Positions 20,197 to 31,350 of a stretch of DNA of 64,000 bases are shown here, one piece after another. The stretch is taken from positions 4,371 to 68,370 of the forward strand of contig JAOAIX010000010.1 of assembly GCA_026414485.1 (NCBI GenBank). Reading direction: 5' to 3'. Numbering within the stretch: position 1 is the first letter of the stretch; each line of letters opens with the position of its first letter. The notes beneath the pieces were generated by a model, which was not told the DNA's origin, did not search any database, and saw only the letters and a program-made list of their open reading frames with translations. The stretch comes from Candidatus Bathyarchaeota archaeon (GTDB taxonomy: Archaea; Thermoproteota; Bathyarchaeia; Bathyarchaeales; Bathycorpusculaceae). The translations under genes and the position numbers were made by a program.

Positions 20197-20559
20197 TTAC
20201 TGTTTATAGGCTAACCCCGTAAAAATCGCCACTGTTTTTTCTTCTTTGCGGACTGTAATTTGATATAGACCAAAAGTTTTACCTTCAGAAAGCCTCACAG
20301 CTTCAGCTGTTAATATATCACCCTCCTTAGTAGGCTTCAGGAAGTTTATGCTTACTTGTACGGCAACTGCTACTTTGTCGCCCGAGTTTGCTGCTTCTGC
20401 AAAAGCGCAGTCAGCAAGAGAGAAAACTACGCCGCCATGGGTAACACCTACAAAGTTTAGGTGTTGTTTGGAGACTTTCATGGTCACTTTGGCGTAGCCA
20501 TCGTTGACCGCCACTACTTGAATATCAAGTAACTCTCTGAAGTTATCTGTGCCTTTCAT
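20197..20559 (-). CDS. Hotdog-fold acyl-CoA thioesterase, PaaI family
   Basis: 120 aa. GVTHGGVVFSLADCAFAEAANS is the PaaI-type catalytic region. Last gene of the liv-ior-paaK operon, with a 4-nt overlap with livM. Confidence 0.7.
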   Translation of the reverse strand: MKGTDNFRELLDIQVVAVNDGYAKVTMKVSKQHLNFVGVTHGGVVFSLADCAFAEAANSGDKVAVAVQVSINFLKPTKEGDILTAEAVRLSEGKTFGLYQITVRKEEKTVAIFTGLAYKQ

Positions 20560-21605
20560 TGTTTACCAGCTGCTCTTTTGTTTAACAAATGAGCGTAGGC
20601 TTTGTCAATAACTGAGTAAATGCCTTTTGGCGCAAAAATAACAACTACTAATAAGATTATGCCAAGAAGCATCATGCGTATTGGTGGACCCACATTACTC
20701 ACTGCTGGAAACAACGAACCCAATAACCCTTGTAACAGATGGTCAATCCGAGGCAGATAAGCATCGATAGAGACAATTATCGCTGAGCCTATAAGAGGAC
20801 CGCTTAGGGTTCCTAGTCCACCTATGACAGCCATCATGAGGGGTAAAAAAGAAAAGTGAGGACTAAAAATTGAGACATCGATGTAACGAATGTATTGGGC
20901 ATACAATCCACCGGCTAACCCTGCAAAAAAGGTGCTGAGGATAAAAGCTACTAGTCTATATCTAGCAGTGTTTATACCTGTCATTTTTGCTTCAAGCTCG
21001 TTTTCACGTATAGCTTTAAAAGCTAATCCTAATTTTGACTTCATTATCAAATAGATTATGAAAATTGAGGCTGCTGCTACAGCAAAAGTGAAGTAGTAAA
21101 ACAGAACGCCACGAGGAACAATTAAGGGAGTACGAAAACCCATTATGCCGCCTATCACAGAATCAAATTGGCTGACAAGTGTTAGAGAAATTACTGAGAA
21201 GCCGAAAGTAACCATTCCTAAAAACCAAGCCTTTAACCTCACGCAAGTGAGACCAATAAGAAAACCTATTGCCGCCGAAAATAGTCCACCTAAAAAAAGC
21301 CCAAGTAGAGGAGGTACACCTAGCTTTATGGCGAGTAGTGCTGAAGTGAAACCGCCAATACCTAAGAAGGCGGCGTGCCCAAGGGAGCCTTGTCCTGAGA
21401 AGGCTAGCAAATTCCAACTTGACGCGTAAATAGCAAAGATTAGCATGGGTGCTAAGACTTCACTAATCACGTACTCACTGCCAATTATAAGAGGAAGAGC
21501 AGCTATAATCACAAGACCAGCGATGACAAAAATAAACCGCCTTGAGTATAGGCGACTTAAGTTAAATAATTTTATAAATCTTGTCATGTTATTCACCTTT
21601 TCCAC
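20556..21605 (-). CDS. livM: Branched-chain/aromatic amino acid ABC transporter permease, LivM-type
   Basis: 349-aa multi-pass membrane protein with the LivM-like segments SLGHAAFLGIGGF and GINTARYRLVAFILS. Confidence 0.8.
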   Translation of the reverse strand: MEKVNNMTRFIKLFNLSRLYSRRFIFVIAGLVIIAALPLIIGSEYVISEVLAPMLIFAIYASSWNLLAFSGQGSLGHAAFLGIGGFTSALLAIKLGVPPLLGLFLGGLFSAAIGFLIGLTCVRLKAWFLGMVTFGFSVISLTLVSQFDSVIGGIMGFRTPLIVPRGVLFYYFTFAVAAASIFIIYLIMKSKLGLAFKAIRENELEAKMTGINTARYRLVAFILSTFFAGLAGGLYAQYIRYIDVSIFSPHFSFLPLMMAVIGGLGTLSGPLIGSAIIVSIDAYLPRIDHLLQGLLGSLFPAVSNVGPPIRMMLLGIILLVVVIFAPKGIYSVIDKAYAHLLNKRAAGKQ

Positions 21606-22461
21606 CGAATAGACCCGTGGGTTTAATTATCAACACAGCGATGAGAAGCACAAAAGCGATCGCATCGGGCCAAATTCCACCTAGCAAGTAGCCAGCAGTA
21701 GTTTCAGCTATTCCATAAAGCAGGCCACCTATCACTGCTCCAGGTATGCTACCCAGTCCACCCAGTATTATTATGGCAAATGCCTTGATTGTTGGTAATG
21801 CGCCCAACGTTGGGCTAAATGGGAAAATTATTCCGTAAAGGGCACCGGCAGCGCCCGCCAAAGCTGCACCTAACGCAAAAGTGAAAACATAGACTTTTTC
21901 GATGTTTATCCCCATAAGTTTGGCGGCATCGCTTTTTTGGCTGGTTGCCTGCATAGCTAAACCAATCTTGGTTCTTTTCATCAAAAACACAATTGATAAA
22001 AGAATAACAACAACTATGCCGATGGCGGCTAATCTGTCGTAACTTATGGAAATTCCAGCTAACGAAAGAATACCATTTATGGAACTTGGAATTTGAGCGG
22101 ACTTGTTACCCCACAAAAGCACAGCTGCATTTTCAAAAATGTAAATTAAACCTAAACTGACAAAAATTTCGTTCAGTTTTTCAGTTCCCAGAACCTTACG
22201 GAATGTTAACCTTTCAACAGCGACGCCAATAATCGCCACACCGACCATTGCAACGAGAATAGCAAGGTAAGAATTTACACCTAAAATAACAGAAGTTGTG
22301 AAGGCTAAGTAGGCGCCAATCATAAGGAGTTGCCCATGAGCAAAATTGACGAGTTTCATTACACCAAAGATTATACTCAGGCCTGTTGCCAATAGTATGT
22401 AAATACAACCGTTTGCTACACCCCAAAGCAAGGTTTCAGCGAGTCCAGAGGGGGTAATCAT
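21589..22461 (-). CDS. livH: Branched-chain/aromatic amino acid ABC transporter permease, LivH-type
   Basis: 290 aa. LivH-like segments VNFAHGQLLMIGAY and LMGINIEKVYVFTFALGAALAG. Confidence 0.85.
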   Translation of the reverse strand: MITPSGLAETLLWGVANGCIYILLATGLSIIFGVMKLVNFAHGQLLMIGAYLAFTTSVILGVNSYLAILVAMVGVAIIGVAVERLTFRKVLGTEKLNEIFVSLGLIYIFENAAVLLWGNKSAQIPSSINGILSLAGISISYDRLAAIGIVVVILLSIVFLMKRTKIGLAMQATSQKSDAAKLMGINIEKVYVFTFALGAALAGAAGALYGIIFPFSPTLGALPTIKAFAIIILGGLGSIPGAVIGGLLYGIAETTAGYLLGGIWPDAIAFVLLIAVLIIKPTGLFGGKGE

Positions 22462-22551
22462 GTAGGTTCAACCTCACCTATTTTCTCATATTGAGTATTT
22501 AAAACATATCGAGAAAAATAAAAAACTAAAAGAAAAGATGGAATTGGAAGT

Positions 22552-24009
22552 CTATGGGCTTCCAGGTTGGTAGCCAGGCGGCAAAACGAATTCGGCTTGT
22601 TTAATTGACCCAACAACTGGTACAGCCGACGGATACACAATTTTTGGTCGTGCTTCCTGTAGAGTTGCGTTGTAGGTTAATTGTTCAACAAAGGTTACTG
22701 GCGAAATTTCGTGATAATTTACGCCTGTGCTGAACTGTATTGTGCCTGTTTTAGTCATGATTAGCATTTGAGGCATGTTTATCTGCTCGATAGCATCTCG
22801 GATAGCAGCTTTATCTAAAGTTCCTGCACGCTCAATCGCCTCCTTGGCTATGTAAAAAGCGTCATATGTATCAGCACCCATCATACCTGGCAAGGTGTTA
22901 TATTTTGCTTTGTAGTTTGCAACATAAGTTTCTATTGCAGGCAAGTAGAATGGTGGACCAGCATATGAAGCAAATTTTGATTCTAGTAGTACACCGTCAC
23001 CGTATTCTCCCAATAACGTGTAAAATTGTGGGTCTTCACAACATTCAACCGCTATGTAAACTGTATTTAATCCAACATCTTTCCGACCTTCTTTGATTAT
23101 TTCAGCAGTGTTAGCGATAAAGTCAACTACATAAACAGCGTCAGGTTTAGCATCTTTAATTACTGTGAGGTCAGTTTGGAAGGTGGTTGCAGTTGTCTGG
23201 TATGACCGCTCTGCAACTATTTCTATCGGAAGGTTGTTGGTTATTATAAGGTTTTTGGTGTCAGCTACAACGCCTTTACCAAAGGCGTCATTGCGGTAGA
23301 TAAGAGCCAACCGAAGAGGTCGTGAGGCTGCAAAATGGTAGGTGCTGTCAATCAAGGGTTTCATAGTTTCAGCGAAGAAATTAACTACTGTTGTGCTGTA
23401 GTCGGAAGTAGTTGTGCAGTAATGGAACATGTAGCTCATTCCTTCGGCATCGTTGATTCTTCTTGCGTCGTCTTCAGCTAATCCACCGAAGTTACCTTGT
23501 GGACCTCTGCGAGTAACCAGATTTGAAGAAGCTCCTGTTATTATGAACGGAACACGATTCTCAATTGCTACAACCTGCCCTGCGAGGGTGCCTGCACTTG
23601 TGTAACCACCTATTAAAAGATCGACTTTATCTTCAACTACTGCACGTGTAATTGGACCCACAGTCTCGCCTGCTGTATCTTTACCTGTGTCAGCGATTAT
23701 AAGCTCTATAGGAACTTTTGTGTTCCATTCAGCGACGTAGACGCCTCCAGCGGCGTTAATTTCTTCGACAGCAAGTTTAGCGGCTCTATCCATGTCTTGA
23801 CCTTCGGCTAGCTGGTAACCTGCAACTAAACCTATTCGAACAGGTCTTGCATCGGGTGATGGCGTAGTAGAAGCTAGTGGTGTAGCTGTTTGGGTTGGTG
23901 TAGGCGACGGCGATGAAGCTGGCTGCTGTGTTATTTGCCATACGCCAGCACTTGTGATAGCAACAATTACCACTATAGCGGTGATAACAACTAAAATTTT
24001 CTTTTGCAC
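22552..24009 (-). CDS. ABC transporter substrate-binding protein (LivK/type-I PBP) with N-terminal anchor and Thr/Pro linker
   Basis: 485 aa. N-terminal TM helix, linker SSPSPTPTQTATPLASTTPSP, then a type-I periplasmic-binding-protein-like body (VRIGLVAGYQLAEGQD...). Confidence 0.8.
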   Translation of the reverse strand: MQKKILVVITAIVVIVAITSAGVWQITQQPASSPSPTPTQTATPLASTTPSPDARPVRIGLVAGYQLAEGQDMDRAAKLAVEEINAAGGVYVAEWNTKVPIELIIADTGKDTAGETVGPITRAVVEDKVDLLIGGYTSAGTLAGQVVAIENRVPFIITGASSNLVTRRGPQGNFGGLAEDDARRINDAEGMSYMFHYCTTTSDYSTTVVNFFAETMKPLIDSTYHFAASRPLRLALIYRNDAFGKGVVADTKNLIITNNLPIEIVAERSYQTTATTFQTDLTVIKDAKPDAVYVVDFIANTAEIIKEGRKDVGLNTVYIAVECCEDPQFYTLLGEYGDGVLLESKFASYAGPPFYLPAIETYVANYKAKYNTLPGMMGADTYDAFYIAKEAIERAGTLDKAAIRDAIEQINMPQMLIMTKTGTIQFSTGVNYHEISPVTFVEQLTYNATLQEARPKIVYPSAVPVVGSIKQAEFVLPPGYQPGSP

Positions 24010-24061
24010 TACAATTTCTCCTCTTTTTTTCCTTTGTATATCGAAGGTACGCTTAATAAAA

Positions 24062-24655
24062 CTAACTCAAAGATACGCTTTGGCGTCCCAGTTCGAAAGC
24101 TTCAAGGTTTAGCGTTACATATTTTTCTTTAAGACGAGAGGTTATTGCCTGTTTGAAAGAGTCCTGCTTGACAGGATTCTCAGGTAAAGCGGAAACTGCG
24201 CCTAAAAGAACCGTGTTTACTACTAAGAGGTTCCCAAGTTTTTGAGCTATTCCTATGCCGTCTACCTCGTGTACCCGTCGCGCATAGCTCCGGATGAGGG
24301 CAAGTAGTTCTTCAGGTTTCACAGGTTTAGCGTTTCCCTGTGTAATACTGTTAGGCGGGATGTATTTTGTGTTAACTAAAACTGTACCTTTGGGTCTAAG
24401 CATAGAAAGGGAGCGAGCAGTTTCGAGAATTTCAAAACCAATAATTAAGTCAGCCTTACCAGTTTCAATCAACGGAGACAAAACTTTGTCGCCCACTCTT
24501 ACGTGAGCACTAATTGAACCACCACGTTGCGCCATGCCATGGATTTCAGCTTTTGCCACATCAAAACCGTCCAACATTGCGGCTTCGCAAAAAATGTCAC
24601 TTAAAACAACTACACCTTGCCCACCTACACCAGTGAAAATAAGGTCTAACGCCAT
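24062..24655 (-). CDS. iorB: Indolepyruvate:ferredoxin oxidoreductase subunit beta
   Basis: 197 aa. GVGGQGVV....I...A....G..V...E.HGMAQRGGS is the gamma-type POR domain. Immediately downstream of iorA. Confidence 0.85.
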   Translation of the reverse strand: MALDLIFTGVGGQGVVVLSDIFCEAAMLDGFDVAKAEIHGMAQRGGSISAHVRVGDKVLSPLIETGKADLIIGFEILETARSLSMLRPKGTVLVNTKYIPPNSITQGNAKPVKPEELLALIRSYARRVHEVDGIGIAQKLGNLLVVNTVLLGAVSALPENPVKQDSFKQAITSRLKEKYVTLNLEAFELGRQSVSLS

Positions 24656-24657
24656 TT

Positions 24658-26868
24658 TTATTCAATGCTCCTTATAGCGTTGAACGGACATAAAGCTTGG
24701 CACACACCACACCCCCAGCAGAGTGTTACGTCAATTTCCGCGCGTTCAGATTTCAAAGAAATTGCTGGGCATCCGAAAGCAGTTACACATATGCCGCAGG
24801 AGTTGCATTTTTCTGTAACTTCACGGGCAGAATTCTTGGGAATCTTAAGAGGACAAGGGCGCTCAGAAATTACCACGGAAGGACCATCATAATCCAAAAT
24901 TTCCTGTAGGACTTTTCGTGTTCCATCCACATCATAAGGATCTATATTTTTCACTTTTTCGACGCCGAGACTACGGCAGATTTCGTCAAGCTTCATAATT
25001 TTGGCGTCCTCGCCCATGGCGTTTTTTCCTGATCCAGGTGTAGGTTGATGCCCAGTCATGGCAACTACACGGTTATCGAGAATAACGACGCATACGTCAG
25101 CTTTGTTATAGGTTATATTCAAAAGACCTGGCATGCCGCCGTGAAAAAAAGTGGAGTCACCTATTACCGCGAAAACTTTTTCCTTGACTCCTGCATGAAA
25201 CATTCCTGCCGCTTGGGAAATTCCGGCGCCCATACACAGACAGGTTTGCACTGAGTTGAGAGGTTGCAAATAACCCAAAGTATAGCAACCAATATCGCCG
25301 GTGACAATTTTATCTTCAGTTCTACCTGAGAAACTGAGAGCTCCTTCGGGGCAAGTTTCCACACATTTTGGTTTGCCTTCGCAGGTATCACAGACTATTG
25401 CTTTTCTTGTTTGTGGATGCAAAGTAACGGCGCCATATTTACATGCAGTTATACACCAGCCGCAGCCGTCACATTTGCTTTCCTCCACATGGATAACCCC
25501 AGTTGTTGACAACTGAGATAACGCCTCTTTTGGGCAAGCAGTAACGCAAGGTGCATCTTTGCAGAGACGACAAGACAGGGCCATATTTGAAAGTGGATCA
25601 AGACGTACAGCTCGGATTCGTGATTTGTATGGATTGAAAACCTGCTCTTTTTCCCAAGAGCACTCAAGCTCACAAATGTCGCAACTAATGCATTTTTGAG
25701 GATTACATTGCACAAACTGGTTCACAGTATTTAAGGCATAATAGAAAGCCCGATGCGGACAGCCTGGACATAAAACTGGAGGGCGAGGGGGTAAAGTTAA
25801 GTCGATATTTCGCGATGGCAGTTTATCACATAAACCTATCTTAGAGAAAGCTTCACGAAGAAGATCAGGGTTGAATTCCCCAATTTCGTCGAGCTGTAGT
25901 TCCTTTTTTCCTAAAATTTCAACGTCTAAACCACGTAAATTCTCCTCGATGTAGGGACGCAGCTCTTCTACAACTATGATTTTTTCCAATTTAGATGCAA
26001 ATTGCCGCACTAACTCATATGGGAAAGGATACATGAAACCTAGTTTCAGCCAAGAAAACTTTTTTGAAGATAACAAAGATTTGGCGTAGTAGTATCCTAC
26101 ACCGCTACCTATTATGCCAATTTTTTTGTGGTTATTTTCGAAAACATTATAGTTGGATTTGTTGGCAATTTTTTCTGCTTCGGCCAAACGGCTTTTCAAC
26201 ACATGGTGTTGGCGCATAGCGTTTAAAGGCACCATGACCCATTTGGATTGGTCTTTGTCAAACTCGGCTTTGCGAGTAAGCTTAAGGAACTCTCCTATTT
26301 TTACGCGGGCTTTACTGTGGGCAACTCGGGTGGTTAAGCGGACGATGACAGGCAAACTAAGCTTTTCGCTTATCTCAAACGCTTCCCTAGTCATATCATA
26401 AGCTTCTTGAGGACTGCCGGCGTCAAGTAGGGGTATATTTGAGTGAACCGCAAAATAGCGGCTGTCCTGTTCGTTTTGGCTACTATGCATAGCTGGATCA
26501 TCGCAAACCACAATAACTAATCCGCCAACAACACCTGTGTAAGCCAGGGTCATTGCGGCGTCTGCAGCAACATTTAACCCAACATGTTTCATGGAAACAA
26601 TGGATCGAACTCCAGTCATAGAAGCGCCAGCAGCAACTTCTACTGCAACTATCTCGTTGACACTCCACTCTGCGTAGATTCCTAGGGGTTTAGCGACTTC
26701 AGCAATTGCTTCCAAAATTTCAGTTGAAGGCGTGCCAGGGTATGCTGCGGCAACTTTTATGCCAGACTCTATGGCTCCTCTAGCGACTGCTTCATCGCCG
26801 TTTAGTAGCATAAAACTACCGGGTTTGTTAATTGCAAGTTTTGAAGCCATGTTGATTGAGACCTTCAC
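24658..26868 (-). CDS. iorA: Indolepyruvate:ferredoxin oxidoreductase subunit alpha carrying an extra inserted four-cluster ferredoxin module
   Basis: 736 aa. Contains LLNGDEAVARGAIESG, LCPGCPHR, GDIGCYTLG, GDSTFFHGG and the C-terminal CNSCGICVTAFGCP / CWGCGVCQALCP. A ~140-aa Cys-rich insert occupies residues ~384-520. The start overlaps the paaK stop by 4 nt. Confidence 0.85.
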   Translation of the reverse strand: MKVSINMASKLAINKPGSFMLLNGDEAVARGAIESGIKVAAAYPGTPSTEILEAIAEVAKPLGIYAEWSVNEIVAVEVAAGASMTGVRSIVSMKHVGLNVAADAAMTLAYTGVVGGLVIVVCDDPAMHSSQNEQDSRYFAVHSNIPLLDAGSPQEAYDMTREAFEISEKLSLPVIVRLTTRVAHSKARVKIGEFLKLTRKAEFDKDQSKWVMVPLNAMRQHHVLKSRLAEAEKIANKSNYNVFENNHKKIGIIGSGVGYYYAKSLLSSKKFSWLKLGFMYPFPYELVRQFASKLEKIIVVEELRPYIEENLRGLDVEILGKKELQLDEIGEFNPDLLREAFSKIGLCDKLPSRNIDLTLPPRPPVLCPGCPHRAFYYALNTVNQFVQCNPQKCISCDICELECSWEKEQVFNPYKSRIRAVRLDPLSNMALSCRLCKDAPCVTACPKEALSQLSTTGVIHVEESKCDGCGWCITACKYGAVTLHPQTRKAIVCDTCEGKPKCVETCPEGALSFSGRTEDKIVTGDIGCYTLGYLQPLNSVQTCLCMGAGISQAAGMFHAGVKEKVFAVIGDSTFFHGGMPGLLNITYNKADVCVVILDNRVVAMTGHQPTPGSGKNAMGEDAKIMKLDEICRSLGVEKVKNIDPYDVDGTRKVLQEILDYDGPSVVISERPCPLKIPKNSAREVTEKCNSCGICVTAFGCPAISLKSERAEIDVTLCWGCGVCQALCPFNAIRSIE

Positions 26869-28184
26869 ATTTTGCCTTTCCGATTATCAAAAACGTGTTT
26901 GGCTTTTCCTTCTGTTCTAGGGATTTCTCCGTACTTTACAATTTCAATTTCAGGATGAAGCCCTGTGACGCTACAGATCTTACTTTGTATTTTAACTGCG
27001 AGAGCCTTCAAGTCGAGTTGTTTGTTTTTGGAGGCTTCCTCGTTTAATTCCACTTTTACCAGGAATGTATCTAAAGCATCTGGGCGATCTACAATTATGT
27101 GGTACTGCGAGGCCAATTCTGGAAATCCCATAACTACATATTCGATTTGTGATGGAAAGACGTTGACACCTCTAATGATAAGCATGTCATCTGATCTACC
27201 GCTGACCCGCATCATGCGGGCGTGTGTACGGCCACAAGGGCAATTATCTGTTTGAATAACAGAAATGTCACGTGTGCGATACCTTAGAAGAGGCAAAGCA
27301 GTTTTGGAGAGAGGGGTAAAAACCAGTTCACCTTCTTCGCCGTCAGAAAGAACTTCACCTGTTTCAGAGTTTATAGTTTCAACTATGAAGTGATCTTCCC
27401 AAACGTGTAAACCATGATGCTCTGAACATTCTATTGAAACCCCAGGACCACACAATTCAGTTAAACCGTAAACGTCAAAGGCGTTAATGCCTAATGTAGT
27501 TTGGATGCGGTCACGAATTCTTTCCGACCACGGTTCAGCGCCGAAAAGACCAAGTTTTAGAACTAGATCTCTTTTTGGGTCAACACCTTCAGCCGCCATG
27601 GTTTCTGCGAGGTAAACGGCAAAGCTAGGAGTACAGCATAGTACTGTGGCTTTTAGGTCTTTCATAAGTTTTATCTGGCGTTGAGTCATACCCCCGCTGG
27701 CGGGTATTATGGCGGCGCCAAGTTTCTGGGCGCCGTAGTGGAAACCTAAGCCACCCGTAAATAAGCCGTAGCCGTAGGCTATGTGGATGACGTCGTCGTT
27801 TCTGCCGCCTGCGGTGTATATAGATCGGGCCATTAACTCTTGCCATGTGTCCATGTCGGTTTTGGTGTACGCCCCAATAATAGGGTTACCTGTGGTACCG
27901 CTTGAAGCGTGGATTTCGACAATTTCGGCAGGAGGAACCGCCAACAGCCCAAGCGGATAATTATCTCTCAGATCATTTTTTACAGTGAAGGGAATTTTTT
28001 GCAGATCTACGAGAGTCTTTATGTTATCAGGGGTCAACTTTGCCTCCTTGAGTTTCCTTTTATAAAAAGGAGAGTTGTTGTAGCAATGTTTGACTTGCGC
28101 TTTAAGTTTTTTTAGTTGAAGTTCTTGGAGTTTTTTTCTTGGCATCGTTTCTATAGTTTTATTCCAGTACACACTATTGCTCAT
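26865..28184 (-). CDS. paaK: Phenylacetate--CoA ligase (PaaK / F390-synthetase family adenylate-forming enzyme)
   Basis: 439 aa. SSGTTGNPI AMP-binding motif, YGLTE, and a typical PaaK N-terminus (YWNK.IETMPR..L..LQL.KL). Confidence 0.85.
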   Translation of the reverse strand: MSNSVYWNKTIETMPRKKLQELQLKKLKAQVKHCYNNSPFYKRKLKEAKLTPDNIKTLVDLQKIPFTVKNDLRDNYPLGLLAVPPAEIVEIHASSGTTGNPIIGAYTKTDMDTWQELMARSIYTAGGRNDDVIHIAYGYGLFTGGLGFHYGAQKLGAAIIPASGGMTQRQIKLMKDLKATVLCCTPSFAVYLAETMAAEGVDPKRDLVLKLGLFGAEPWSERIRDRIQTTLGINAFDVYGLTELCGPGVSIECSEHHGLHVWEDHFIVETINSETGEVLSDGEEGELVFTPLSKTALPLLRYRTRDISVIQTDNCPCGRTHARMMRVSGRSDDMLIIRGVNVFPSQIEYVVMGFPELASQYHIIVDRPDALDTFLVKVELNEEASKNKQLDLKALAVKIQSKICSVTGLHPEIEIVKYGEIPRTEGKAKHVFDNRKGKM

Positions 28185-28199
28185 AGACGTTTCCTCCAG

Positions 28200-28937
28200 T
28201 TAAAGTCCCAGATATACTTCCTTGATGTGACTATTAGACAGCAGTTCTCTGCTTTTGCCATCTATAATAATCTTGCCTTCTTCGAGAACATATCCACGGT
28301 TAGATATGTTAAGTGAGTCTCGAATATTTTGCTCAACAAGGAGGACAGTTACGCCATCTTCATTTATTTTTGTTATAGTGTCAAGAACTTTTTCTACTAT
28401 TATTGGAGCTAACCCCAGTGAGGGTTCGTCTAATATGAGAAGCTGTGGATTGGACATTAAGCTACGGCAGATTACAAGCATTTGTTGTTCCCCACCGCTG
28501 AGAGTCTGAGCAAGGGCTTTTTGTTTCTTTTTGAGAACAGGGAAGATTTGATAGAGTTTTTCTTGAGTATCCTTTATTTTTTCTTTATTTTTGACACTGT
28601 AGGCACCCAGCTGCAGGTTCTCTTCAACAGTCAATTTGGGAAAAATCTCTCTTCCTTCAGGAATCATCGTTACGCCTTTTTTGACAATTTCATAGGTGGG
28701 GAGGTTTTGAATTTCTTCACCTTTAAATTGTATTGTTCCATCTTTTGCGGGCAACAGAGCCATTATAGTTTTTACGAGAGTGGTTTTACCTGCCCCGTTT
28801 GGTCCAATAATACTAACTATTTCTTTCTCTTTAATATGGAAAGATACATCCCAGAGAATTTGAACCATACCGTAGCCAGCTGATAAATTTTTGACTTCCA
28901 GCATGTTAGTCCTCTCCGAACGCAAATTTCTTGCCAA
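28200..28937 (-). CDS. livF: ABC transporter ATP-binding protein, LivF-type
   Basis: 245 aa. Walker A GPNGAGKTT, signature LSGGEQQ, Walker B LLILDEPS. Confidence 0.85.
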   Translation of the reverse strand: MARNLRSERTNMLEVKNLSAGYGMVQILWDVSFHIKEKEIVSIIGPNGAGKTTLVKTIMALLPAKDGTIQFKGEEIQNLPTYEIVKKGVTMIPEGREIFPKLTVEENLQLGAYSVKNKEKIKDTQEKLYQIFPVLKKKQKALAQTLSGGEQQMLVICRSLMSNPQLLILDEPSLGLAPIIVEKVLDTITKINEDGVTVLLVEQNIRDSLNISNRGYVLEEGKIIIDGKSRELLSNSHIKEVYLGL

Positions 28938-29658
28938 GGTAAACTTTTACGACTTCTTCGTTGTTGCAGACTTTTTCAGGTGTACCCTCGCAAAGTTTTT
29001 CGCCATGATGTAACACAATGACACGATTGCATAAACCCATTATCACACGCATTACATGCTCAACAATGAGTACAGTTATGCCCTGTTTGTTAATGAGTTT
29101 AACGAGTTCTACAGCTTGGTCACTTTCTTTTGGCGTTAACCCTGTGAGAAGCTCGTCAAGAAGGAGCAGGTGAGGTTTTGTTGCTAGAGCACGGGCAAGT
29201 TGAACACGACGCAGCTCAATAACGTTGAGGTTCTGAGCAGGCAGAGTAAATTTTTCTTTTGGTAAACCAACAAAGTCCAAAAGCTCAGAGGCTTTTGTGG
29301 CAGCATTAATTTTTTCACCGTATTTTTTTGCAGCAAAAAGAACAGCAGTAAGAACATTTTCAAAGGTGGTCATGTCAGGAAAGGATTGGACTGTCTGAGA
29401 AGTTTTAGCTATACCTTTTGAGCAGATAGTGTAAGGGGGTAGCTTTGTTATGTCTTCATTTTGGAAAAGAATTTTGCCGCTATCAGGTTTGTAAACACCG
29501 CTAATAATATTCAGTATTGTGGATTTACCTGAACCGTTTGGTCCAACAAGTCCTACGATTTCGTTCTTGTTAACTGATAAGTCTACCCTTTTTAGTGCTT
29601 GCACACCACCAAATGTTTTAGAAACTTCAAGGCATTGCAGCAACAGATGTTTCTCCAA
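28906..29658 (-). CDS. livG: ABC transporter ATP-binding protein, LivG-type
   Basis: 250 aa. KTFGGVQAL, Walker A GPNGSGKST, LLLLDE. First gene of the operon. Confidence 0.85.
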   Translation of the reverse strand: MEKHLLLQCLEVSKTFGGVQALKRVDLSVNKNEIVGLVGPNGSGKSTILNIISGVYKPDSGKILFQNEDITKLPPYTICSKGIAKTSQTVQSFPDMTTFENVLTAVLFAAKKYGEKINAATKASELLDFVGLPKEKFTLPAQNLNVIELRRVQLARALATKPHLLLLDELLTGLTPKESDQAVELVKLINKQGITVLIVEHVMRVIMGLCNRVIVLHHGEKLCEGTPEKVCNNEEVVKVYLGKKFAFGED

Positions 29659-29940
29659 GTGAACTTTTGGAATATACTGGTTGTAGAGATATATAATTTT
29701 ACGCTAAAACGGCATTTGATGTCCACTCTAACTTTGAAAAACATAATAAAAATGAAAAGACAGATAACACATTATTGAAGAAAAAAGGTTGTATCAGCAA
29801 CAGGTAACAGTAACTCTGGTTGCTGGCATAATTTTCTCAAACCTTATAAACGAGTTTCACGTCAAATCAGTCAACCTTTCCAAAGACAGCAGATCTTAGG
29901 AACAGGTAATATATCCATTCACACATTACGTGGTAAAAAA

Positions 29941-31350
29941 ATGTCGAGCCCAAAAAAACCAAAAATTGCTCTTGTAACTTCACCTCATCTTGAAAGGGCA
30001 TACCATCACCCGCTTTTTCCACCAATAGGTTTGAGTTATCTAGCTGCGGTTTTAGATCAACACGAATATGAAGTGAAAGTTATAGATTGCCCAGCTTGCA
30101 ATTTTACACAGCAGAACTTAAAATCTGAGCTTGCTTCGTTTTCACCTGACCTTATAGGTATAGCATCGATGACTGCAACAATACCATCAGCTTTGGAGTC
30201 TGCGCGAGTAGCAAAAGAAACATGCCCAGACAGCAAGGTCATAATGGGTGGTCCACACGCCACCTTCGCAGATGAGCAGATTCTAAGTGAAGAAGAAGCA
30301 GTGGATATCGTGGTGCGAGGCGAGGGTGAAATAACCATGTTAGAGTTGGCACAGAATAATGCTGACCAAAAAAGTTTGCCCAAAACCAAAGGTATAACCT
30401 TTAGAAATAAAGGGCAAATTGTTAGAACAGAAAGCCGTGACTTCATTGAGGATTTGGATGCACTTCCCAGACCCGCCTACAAATTCTTACCTATGGATAG
30501 GTACAAGATCACAGGTAAAACATTCCTTCCAATAATGACCAGCAGAGGCTGCCCATTCCAATGCAGTTTCTGTGTAGCTAGCCAAATTTTTGGTGCAAAA
30601 TTTCGTGCACGCAGCCCAAAAAACGTGGTTGATGAATTGGAGTGGCTCAAAACAGAGTATGGTGCTGACGGCATCAGTTTCCATGACGACACTTTAACGT
30701 TGGACAAGAAACGCATTATTGACATATGTGACGAAATGATTAATCGTAAAATTAATTTACCTTGGGGCTGCCAAACCCGTGTGGACACGGTTTCTGAAGA
30801 AGTTTTAGCCAAAATGCGCAAGGCAGGTTGTAACGAAGTTTCATTCGGCATCGAATCAGGCTGCCAACGAATCCTTGACGCCGTGCACAAAAAATTTGAG
30901 TTATCACAGGCTGAAAAAGCCATCAAGTGGGCAAAAAAAGAAGGACTGTTCGTAGCGGTTTCCACAATCATCGGTTATCCAGGAGAAACCAAAGAGACGA
31001 TGCAGCAAACCATGGATTTAATGCGGCGGATTGAACCAGATGACGCATGGTTATGCATAGCTACGCCATATCCAGGAACGGAGTTACGAGCTTTGGTGGA
31101 AAAGAACGGTTGGAAAATGACCAATGATTGGACAAAATATAACACTATGAACCCCATCTTTGAGAATCCAGATTTGCCTTCGGAAGAATACAGCAAAATG
31201 CGGACAAAATTCTACAATAGTTTTTACACGCCCAAATATGTTCTCCGACAATTCTCTAAAGGCTACTTGAAGGGTAACTTTTACAGCAAAATCATGGCAA
31301 GAACTGCTGTGAACTACATGCTGTGGCGGATCTTATCAAAGTTCCACTGA
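29941..31350 (+). CDS. B12-binding-domain radical SAM protein (class B)
   Basis: 469 aa. N-terminal Rossmann-like cobalamin-binding domain (KIALVTSP...PPIGLSYLAAVL...IGIASMT...IMGGPHAT) and radical SAM motif CPFQCSFC. Confidence 0.8.
   Translation: MSSPKKPKIALVTSPHLERAYHHPLFPPIGLSYLAAVLDQHEYEVKVIDCPACNFTQQNLKSELASFSPDLIGIASMTATIPSALESARVAKETCPDSKVIMGGPHATFADEQILSEEEAVDIVVRGEGEITMLELAQNNADQKSLPKTKGITFRNKGQIVRTESRDFIEDLDALPRPAYKFLPMDRYKITGKTFLPIMTSRGCPFQCSFCVASQIFGAKFRARSPKNVVDELEWLKTEYGADGISFHDDTLTLDKKRIIDICDEMINRKINLPWGCQTRVDTVSEEVLAKMRKAGCNEVSFGIESGCQRILDAVHKKFELSQAEKAIKWAKKEGLFVAVSTIIGYPGETKETMQQTMDLMRRIEPDDAWLCIATPYPGTELRALVEKNGWKMTNDWTKYNTMNPIFENPDLPSEEYSKMRTKFYNSFYTPKYVLRQFSKGYLKGNFYSKIMARTAVNYMLWRILSKFH

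Follow-up and report, generated by a model that had tools for sequence, protein, structure and literature searches.

In the usual description, 2-oxoacid:ferredoxin oxidoreductases (OFORs) conduct electrons along a fixed wire of three clusters that ends at soluble ferredoxin. One of them is the indolepyruvate oxidoreductase (IOR) of Pyrococcus, Thermococcus, Methanothermobacter and Methanococcus (models TIGR03336 and TIGR03334), which consists of an alpha subunit, IorA, of ~590-650 aa and a separate IorB. Here we describe an iorA gene from Candidatus Bathyarchaeota archaeon (GenBank assembly GCA_026414485.1), a member of the Bathyarchaeia, an archaeal group that ranks among the most abundant in anoxic sediments, peat and soil. 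The gene is located at 24658..26868 on the minus strand of a 64,000-nt stretch of contig JAOAIX010000010.1 (positions 4,371 to 68,370; hereafter the window). Its product keeps the canonical domain order and is accompanied by a separate IorB, but it is 730 aa long and carries ~127 extra residues with 16 Cys, which would allow up to seven clusters as against three. That characterised IorA proteins lack this module is judged from the curated TIGR03336 profile and from the published subunit sizes.

The closest counterparts of the extra segment are WorS and AorA, small polyferredoxin subunits from the tungsten aldehyde:ferredoxin oxidoreductase (AFOR) family. The four Cys motifs, with 16 Cys in all, and the length of the core are the same in these proteins, and the segment shares 53-58% identity with paralogs of this AFOR-adjacent type. 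In the WorSL unit, the N-terminal domain of WorS (clusters S1 and S2) packs on the catalytic subunit and the C-terminal domain (S3 and S4) contacts other proteins (PMC12318220), and the C-terminal helix of WorS/AorA mediates nanowire assembly (PMC12318220, sections 8-9). The bathyarchaeial module differs from these proteins in being an internal domain of a thiamine pyrophosphate (TPP) enzyme rather than a separate subunit, in lacking the C-terminal alpha-helix and in being encoded in an operon with no AFOR.

Among OFORs, the nearest functional analogy is phenylglyoxylate dehydrogenase, PadEFGHI, from which electrons exit via a HydN/WorS-like four-motif module. In Pad this module forms the N-terminus of a separate NAD+-reducing flavoprotein subunit and carries electrons from the OFOR core to the flavin, whereas in the present case a flavin/NAD domain is neither attached to the insert nor adjoining. 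The insert matches positions 6-139 of PadI (NF045766; E = 1e-23), with 83.9 bits against a cut-off of 700, and is thus not a PadI member. WorS-type modules also occur as terminal fusions, in an AFOR-WorS protein (P0163), a WorS-AFOR protein (P0225) and an HdrA-type protein with Pyr_redox_2 (P0123); unlike these, the IorA module is nested inside a domain, between the ligands of an existing cluster. No description of a nested insertion into the TPP domain, or of such an IorA variant, was found in the literature searched on IorA, in a 2026 review of PFOR diversity or in the paper on Bathyarchaeum tardum. This form of IorA is genuine and conserved; it belongs to a known enzyme and has apparently not been described before.

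An IorA subunit with an inserted four-cluster module

On profile score, domain content, Cys set and the adjoining iorB gene, the predicted protein is an IorA. It scores 720.9 bits over its whole length against the NCBIfam equivalog TIGR03336 (595 positions; cut-off 650.9), and Pfam places POR_N (PF01855, residues 31-195) and TPP_enzyme_C (PF02775, residues 525-666) in one chain with Fer4 domains. The open reading frame (ORF) comprises 736 aa when counted from the GTG at 26868, which overlaps the paaK stop by 4 nt and makes the start ambiguous; because the IorA homologues (728-731 aa) all begin at the equivalent of M7, translation probably begins at the ATG at 26850, which yields the 730-aa product. 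Foldseek searches with the AlphaFold2 (AF2) model of the protein returned structures of pyruvate:ferredoxin oxidoreductase (PFOR) as the best matches, consistent with a PFOR-like fold, and no IOR structure was matched in the PDB copy searched by sequence and by Foldseek. The substrates predicted from the IorA identity are aromatic keto-acids, interconverted with aryl-acetyl-CoA; the gene context bearing on an aryl-pyruvate activity consists of a paaK-like ligase and a 4HBT thioesterase, together with an ACT-domain gene and an aminotransferase in relatives.

The first-pass annotation, made from the DNA alone, had placed an extra segment between LCPGCPHR (residues 366-373) and GDIGCYTLG (residues 524-532), and these residue numbers are exact. 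The segment comprises ~135 residues, in frame, between CPGCPH and GDIGC. The match to TIGR03336 breaks at this point into two stretches, profile positions 4-375 and 377-595, so that the additional residues fall at a single profile position, and in an alignment with 25 standard IorA sequences from the same class the segment faces a clean ~127-aa gap. CPGC and GDIGC are 157 residues apart, a distance that measures 21-30 residues in the standard IorA proteins of Bathyarchaeia and of bacteria. Based on the profile split, the alignment gap and the PDB matches, we place the core of the inserted polyferredoxin, of the WorS 4x[4Fe-4S] type, at residues ~382-517 of the protein (P0001; 25318..25725, minus strand), which retains the segment proposed earlier and adjusts its limits from 25309-25719 (residues 384-520).

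All four Cys groups anticipated in the segment are present. Motif I (CxxCxxCxxxC; CISCDICELEC, residues 393-403, with C393, C396, C399 and C403) lies at 25660..25692, motif II (CxxCx4CxxxCP; CRLCKDAPCVTACP, residues 433-446, with C433, C436, C441 and C445) at 25531..25572, motif III (CxxCxxCxxxC; CDGCGWCITAC, residues 466-476, with C466, C469, C472 and C476) at 25441..25473, and motif IV (CxxCx5CxxxCP; CDTCEGKPKCVETCP, residues 493-507, with C493, C496, C502 and C506) at 25348..25392, all on the minus strand and each 100% conserved (n = 80). The 16 motif Cys and one further residue, C388, just upstream of motif I, are invariant in 80 full-length insert-type sequences from different species, which answers the question of conservation among orthologs raised by the first-pass annotation. 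Its proposed scan with Fer4_11/Fer4_7-type models likewise returned the Pfam domain Fer4_11 at residues 431-514, with 37.9 bits against a cut-off of 26.2.

The cofactor sites of a standard IorA are also retained. By homology to PFOR, C367, C370, C528 and C672 would be the ligands of the TPP-proximal [4Fe-4S] cluster. The first two belong to the CPGC motif (25759..25770, minus strand), invariant in both insert-type and standard IorA; the third, C528 of GDIGC (25285..25287, minus strand), follows straight after the insert and strand beta1 and is invariant in all IorA aligned; and the presumed fourth, C672 in ERPCPL (24853..24855, minus strand), is 99-100% conserved in both types. This assignment fits the proximal cluster of the D. 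africanus PFOR, whose ligands we take to be C812, C815, C840 and C1071, with a presumed spacing of 25 residues from the second to the third Cys against 24 in a minimal IorA. In the alignment, the insert is therefore located between the second and third ligands of this cluster. The normal C-terminal 2x[4Fe-4S] ferredoxin domain, the equivalent of PFOR domain V, is still there, as had been noted before (24670..24819, minus strand; two Fer4 stretches, and Fer4_7 at residues 687-731), and its eight Cys are 96-100% conserved. Together with the four proximal-cluster Cys they are kept in the 80 insert-type and 25 standard sequences. There could thus be seven clusters in the alpha subunit (one proximal, two C-terminal and four inserted), and not the six counted from the DNA at first, because the Cys of the proximal cluster are conserved as well. 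An eighth, bridging cluster built from the clade-specific C122, C543 and C593 was considered and rejected; the same Cys occur in the module-less relatives P0273 and P0292 and are not tied to the module.

According to the AF2 model of the full-length IorA (pLDDT, the predicted local confidence, 86.4; pTM, the predicted template-modelling score, 0.82), the insertion site is the loop between the first helix and the first strand of the TPP domain, and the insert folds as alternating strands and helices. This loop (IorA residues ~380-385, window ~25715-25730) is a hot spot of length change. The CPGC-to-GDIGC spacings among close relatives, P0273-P0302 included, take the values 21, 23, 25, 26, 31, 35, 37, 40, 52 and 157. 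A separate bathyarchaeial IorA-like clade (genomes G042, G100, G129, G135 and G076; loci L128-L132), with proteins of 657-670 aa, carries a different, Cys-free insertion of ~21 residues right after GIGCYE, and in this clade the match to TIGR03336 is split at ~390|393.

The module is related to WorS-type polyferredoxins

The best solved relatives of the insert, all four-cluster subunits, are 9mqx_E (E = 4e-27), followed by 6x6u_B and 6x1o_B (1e-25) and 8c0z_C; chance does not account for matches of this strength. Entry 6x6u is presumably P. furiosus WOR5 and 8c0z, we assume, A. aromaticum AorABC; chain 8c0z_C carries an annotation as a potential aldehyde oxidoreductase subunit. All 16 Cys of the insert align to 9mqx_E and likewise to WorS homologues, and 9MQX is the A. 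mobile WorABCSL complex (PMC12318220). A more distant match in the PDB is 4z3w_E, a putative benzoyl-CoA reductase electron-transfer subunit.

The genome encodes three stand-alone paralogs that are 58, 55 and 53% identical to the insert, two of them directly downstream of AFOR genes (contig 28) and the third an orphan (contig 27). Among 1.84 billion representatives the best match has 56% identity, no closer than the paralogs of the same genome. The 50%-identity representative library was queried with the insert alone, and the best 150 matches contain polyferredoxins, either stand-alone or fused to AFOR, as well as a small number of short proteins resembling truncated copies; a full-length insert-type IorA was not found among these 150. 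Homology starts at the N-terminus of WorS (RKFVxxDPEKC in WorS, NQFVQCNPQKC in the insert) and ends ~12 residues past motif IV, at the return to IorA strand beta1. The stand-alone paralogs continue into a C-terminal helix tail of ~30 residues (SDVLAQKARISAIKKLFQE...), which the insert lacks.

The first-pass annotation had compared the module to CooF, DmsB and HybA. The insert does belong, with all 16 Cys, to the Fer4_11 superfamily that includes these proteins, and this is the level of membership it reaches. Membership in the individual families was rejected, as the scores stay below the cut-offs for DmsB (70.2 vs 214.1 bits), NrfC (59.1 vs 377.6), HydN (51.3 vs 260) and HybA (42.2 vs 263), and no CooF model appears among the 25 families listed for the insert in the profile search; the nearest proteins are WorS and AorA. 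Judged by its motifs and boundaries, the block is the cluster-binding core of a WorS/AorA-type polyferredoxin without the oligomerisation helix, and the same comparison traces its origin to the small subunit (WorS type) of a tungsten AFOR.

Conservation and evolutionary history

A scan of 185,579 species genomes yielded 242 relatives, and the best 80 of them all contain the module. Apart from a few oddly labelled metagenome bins they are Bathyarchaeia, Candidatus Bathyarchaeum sp. included. Mean pairwise identity in the 80 full-length insert-type sequences is 66% in the insert and 75% elsewhere, and the median dN/dS (109 pairs) is 0.089 for the insert and 0.071 for the remainder of the protein; by these sequence measures the module is under strong purifying selection. 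The survey of lineages called for at the outset finds the insert in one family of Bathyarchaeia, where 128 of the 332 species genomes carry it; the figure is 82 of 169 when only genomes of high quality are counted, and 12 of the 70 genera are represented. An even sample across the class has it in 11 of 151, most of the others carrying a standard IorA. In a metagenome protein collection, more than 120 clusters of ~729 aa have at least 70% identity over this region.

Three records (loci L042 and L043, protein P0112) place the operon on contigs labelled Nanoarchaeia, Sulfotelmatobacter and Chloroflexota in public records of metagenome-assembled genomes (MAGs); L042 falls inside the bathyarchaeial insert clade, which suggests mis-binning rather than transfer. 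At eight MAG loci (L045, L053, L058, L062, L070, L072, L077 and L087) iorA, and sometimes its neighbours too, is split into two or three consecutive ORFs, and these are probably assembly frameshift errors, not pseudogenes.

Relatives without the module were collected by a search with the N-terminal 376 residues, in which a length limit excluded full-length insert forms; the close ones are 66-75% identical. A tree computed with the insert columns removed has the forms of minimal, 23-residue spacing as the basal branches of the lineage. All insert-type sequences fall within one clade (99% support), in which module-less forms with spacings of 25-52 residues are nested in two or three positions. 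The approximately unbiased (AU) test rejects monophyly of the insert type at p = 1.3e-5, for a group defined after the tree was seen. The nested module-less forms retain traces of both junctions, among them NSVKQY...SSKKGQPVNKIVTGD as against NTVNQF...SLKGKTKDKIVTGD in the insert form, a remnant S(L/K)KG(K/Q) after KQY, and VVKLDP in P0297 as against AVRLDP in the insert; these junction residues are absent from the basal forms. Because module-less forms are both nested in the tree and marked by the junction residues, the most economical reading of the sequences is one gain of the module followed by at least two deletions.

The operon and its genomic context

The iorA gene is part of a nine-gene operon on the minus strand (20197..29658), livG-livF-paaK-iorA-iorB-SBP-livH-livM-4HBT/paaI-like, the order of which is kept in about 70 of the 80 relatives' loci. 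Downstream of iorA lies iorB (24062..24655, minus strand), encoding a POR gamma-type subunit (PF01558 at 4.7e-39; NCBIfam IOR-beta models), and upstream a gene for a paaK-like aryl-acetate-CoA ligase with AMP-binding domains (26865..28184, minus strand), which matches TIGR02155 at 1.7e-165 with 550.7 bits, under the equivalog cut-off of 646.3. The binding protein (SBP) of the importer is a Peripla_BP_6. The same operon, with a divergent ACT-domain gene ahead of livG, surrounds basal, insert-type and deletion-type iorA, which indicates that it predates the module and survives its loss; the gain occurred in an IorA lineage already within the liv-paaK-iorAB operon of one Bathyarchaeia family. The standard IorA of the same family has a different gene context.

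Several relatives have an aminotransferase and an ACT-domain gene alongside the operon. The divergent ACT-domain gene upstream of livG, present in most relatives, encodes 148-159 aa; at that position the window (29658-29941 onward) has no ACT gene and instead a 469-aa plus-strand ORF at 29941-31350. At three loci (L073, L081 and L082) the liv transporter genes are absent and a convergent gene for a 167-aa WorS-like protein lies 0.2-4 kb downstream of iorB, preceded in L073 by a complete AFOR (by Pfam) and in L081 and L082 by ORFs cut off at the end of the locus. In L073 and L081, a methionyl-tRNA synthetase (MetRS) gene and a PHP-domain gene are located upstream of paaK.

Elsewhere in the genome, two AFOR-WorS pairs are encoded on contig 28 (locus L095, 3233-5612 and 7719-10069), on the same strand and ~2 kb apart, and the interval holds a gene of the PMT_2 glycosyltransferase family. 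Contig 11 has a third AFOR gene (211870-212982) but no WorS-type, insert-like match anywhere. The orphan WorS-like protein, a four-motif polyferredoxin of 205 aa with a long Lys/Glu-rich C-terminal tail, is encoded on contig 27 (locus L096, 6156-6773, minus strand); it is not beside an AFOR, its neighbours being a histone-deacetylase-like gene, ArgRS and GCS2. Each of the eight genomes checked in the genus has a copy (207-283 aa). AFOR and WorS genes occur in every genome of the genus, with IorA of the insert type, of the deletion type or absent. The number of AFOR genes is 1-2 in four deletion-type genomes and 3-4 in most insert-type genomes; the lower count probably reflects a single lineage, and we do not use it as evidence.

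Proposed role of the module

In 16-Cys polyferredoxins, motifs I and IV usually form one domain and motifs II and III the other. We assume, as an assignment of our own, that the motif I/IV half of the insert corresponds to the S1/S2 domain of WorS and the motif II/III half to the S3/S4 domain. As the module is tied to the body of IorA at either end, the motif I/IV half would be core-proximal and the motif II/III half would project outward. The polarity would then equal that in WorSL and would fit an added route for electrons between the IOR core and a partner protein. The module would bind four low-potential clusters and serve as an extra electron path, through which a polyferredoxin-type protein or an oxidoreductase would exchange electrons in addition to or instead of soluble ferredoxin. 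A wire of this kind, leading to something other than free ferredoxin, had been suggested in the first-pass annotation and is a reasonable hypothesis. Such an exchange could serve the oxidative decarboxylation of aryl-pyruvates, or else, in view of the neighbouring paaK and transporter genes, the reductive carboxylation of aryl-acetyl-CoA. WorS-like self-assembly into a nanowire was rejected for the insert, which has no C-terminal helix; it would not extend a nanowire by the known mechanism and at most could receive such a helix from another protein.

Our confidence that the module works as an electron-transfer domain with four clusters, for exchange with a partner, is roughly 0.6; confidence in any one specific partner is low. 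Several observations weigh against this reading. The pLDDT of the insert (65-82) is lower than that of the IorA core, and AF2 modelling of the insert and its flanks alone gives a pLDDT of 35. Judged by the secondary structure, a helix of ~10 residues and a strand of ~4-5 residues separate the insertion point from the ligands of the proximal cluster, so that direct transfer from the proximal cluster into the module is not assured. The operon contains no candidate gene for a redox partner. The operon is unchanged in lineages that deleted the module, indicating that the module is accessory and not essential for the enzyme. Finally, WorL-WorS pairs and the orphan WorS-like protein are present in the genomes of the genus whatever the type of IorA, and their co-occurrence therefore gives no support for a specific partner.

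The module may instead act as an electron reservoir, a fused ferredoxin whose four clusters buffer low-potential electrons beside the active site and would aid the two one-electron steps of an OFOR, chiefly in the direction of reductive carboxylation. This would suit an operon that combines an aryl-acetate-CoA ligase, an ABC importer and a 4HBT thioesterase with no redox partner, the aminotransferase and ACT-domain gene alongside it in several relatives, and the retention of the canonical ferredoxin-facing domain V. Yet the WorS-type modules studied so far are through-wires from a catalytic subunit to another protein, and basal IorA lineages of the same operon function without the module, so we regard a reservoir as unlikely.

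Physical coupling to a tungsten aldehyde oxidoreductase, for which the module would keep a WorL-binding face or a helix-accepting groove, would join IOR to WorL/WorS in one iron-sulfur network that bypasses ferredoxin. The module is paralogous to the WorS proteins of the same genome, and these stand-alone proteins retain the C-terminal helix that the insert is without. Residues Y40, F42, V48, M50 and F96, which belong to the hydrophobic groove of A. mobile WorS, correspond by hand mapping to V421, L423, M429, L431 and Y478, and a WorL-WorS pair stands beside iorB in three relatives (with AFOR checked by Pfam in L073 only). Against this, WorL-WorS pairs occur with insert-type, deletion-type or no IorA, with no signal of co-variation, and the adjacency to iorB is limited to 3 of the 80 loci. 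We therefore hold such coupling to be improbable; equally doubtful is its specific form, in which the WorS core would dock IOR to WorL/WorS or to the orphan WorS-like protein and link aldehyde or other low-potential oxidation to aryl-acetate carboxylation without soluble ferredoxin.

Least probable of all is tolerated accretion, in which a permissive loop captured a gene fragment whose clusters are bound but unneeded: the same loop ranges from 21 to 52 residues in relatives and the module was repeatedly lost from an unaltered operon, but a dN/dS of 0.09, 17 invariant Cys in 80 species at ~35% divergence and retention in 128 species genomes are unlike a neutral passenger.

Significance

The bathyarchaeial IorA provides a natural, strongly conserved and widespread case in which a nanowire-type four-cluster module of another enzyme family is nested between the ligands of a catalytic cluster. 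To protein engineers it shows a site within a TPP domain that has proved permissive to insertion in nature. Since the module has been deleted more than once from an operon that otherwise stayed the same, ready-made control enzymes exist, and the role of the module is directly testable. Should docking to WorL/WorS prove true, a 2-oxoacid oxidoreductase would be wired in a novel manner; a module that works as a wire would mean a changed electron partner for an enzyme that is key to how Bathyarchaeia metabolise aromatic amino acids and aryl acids.

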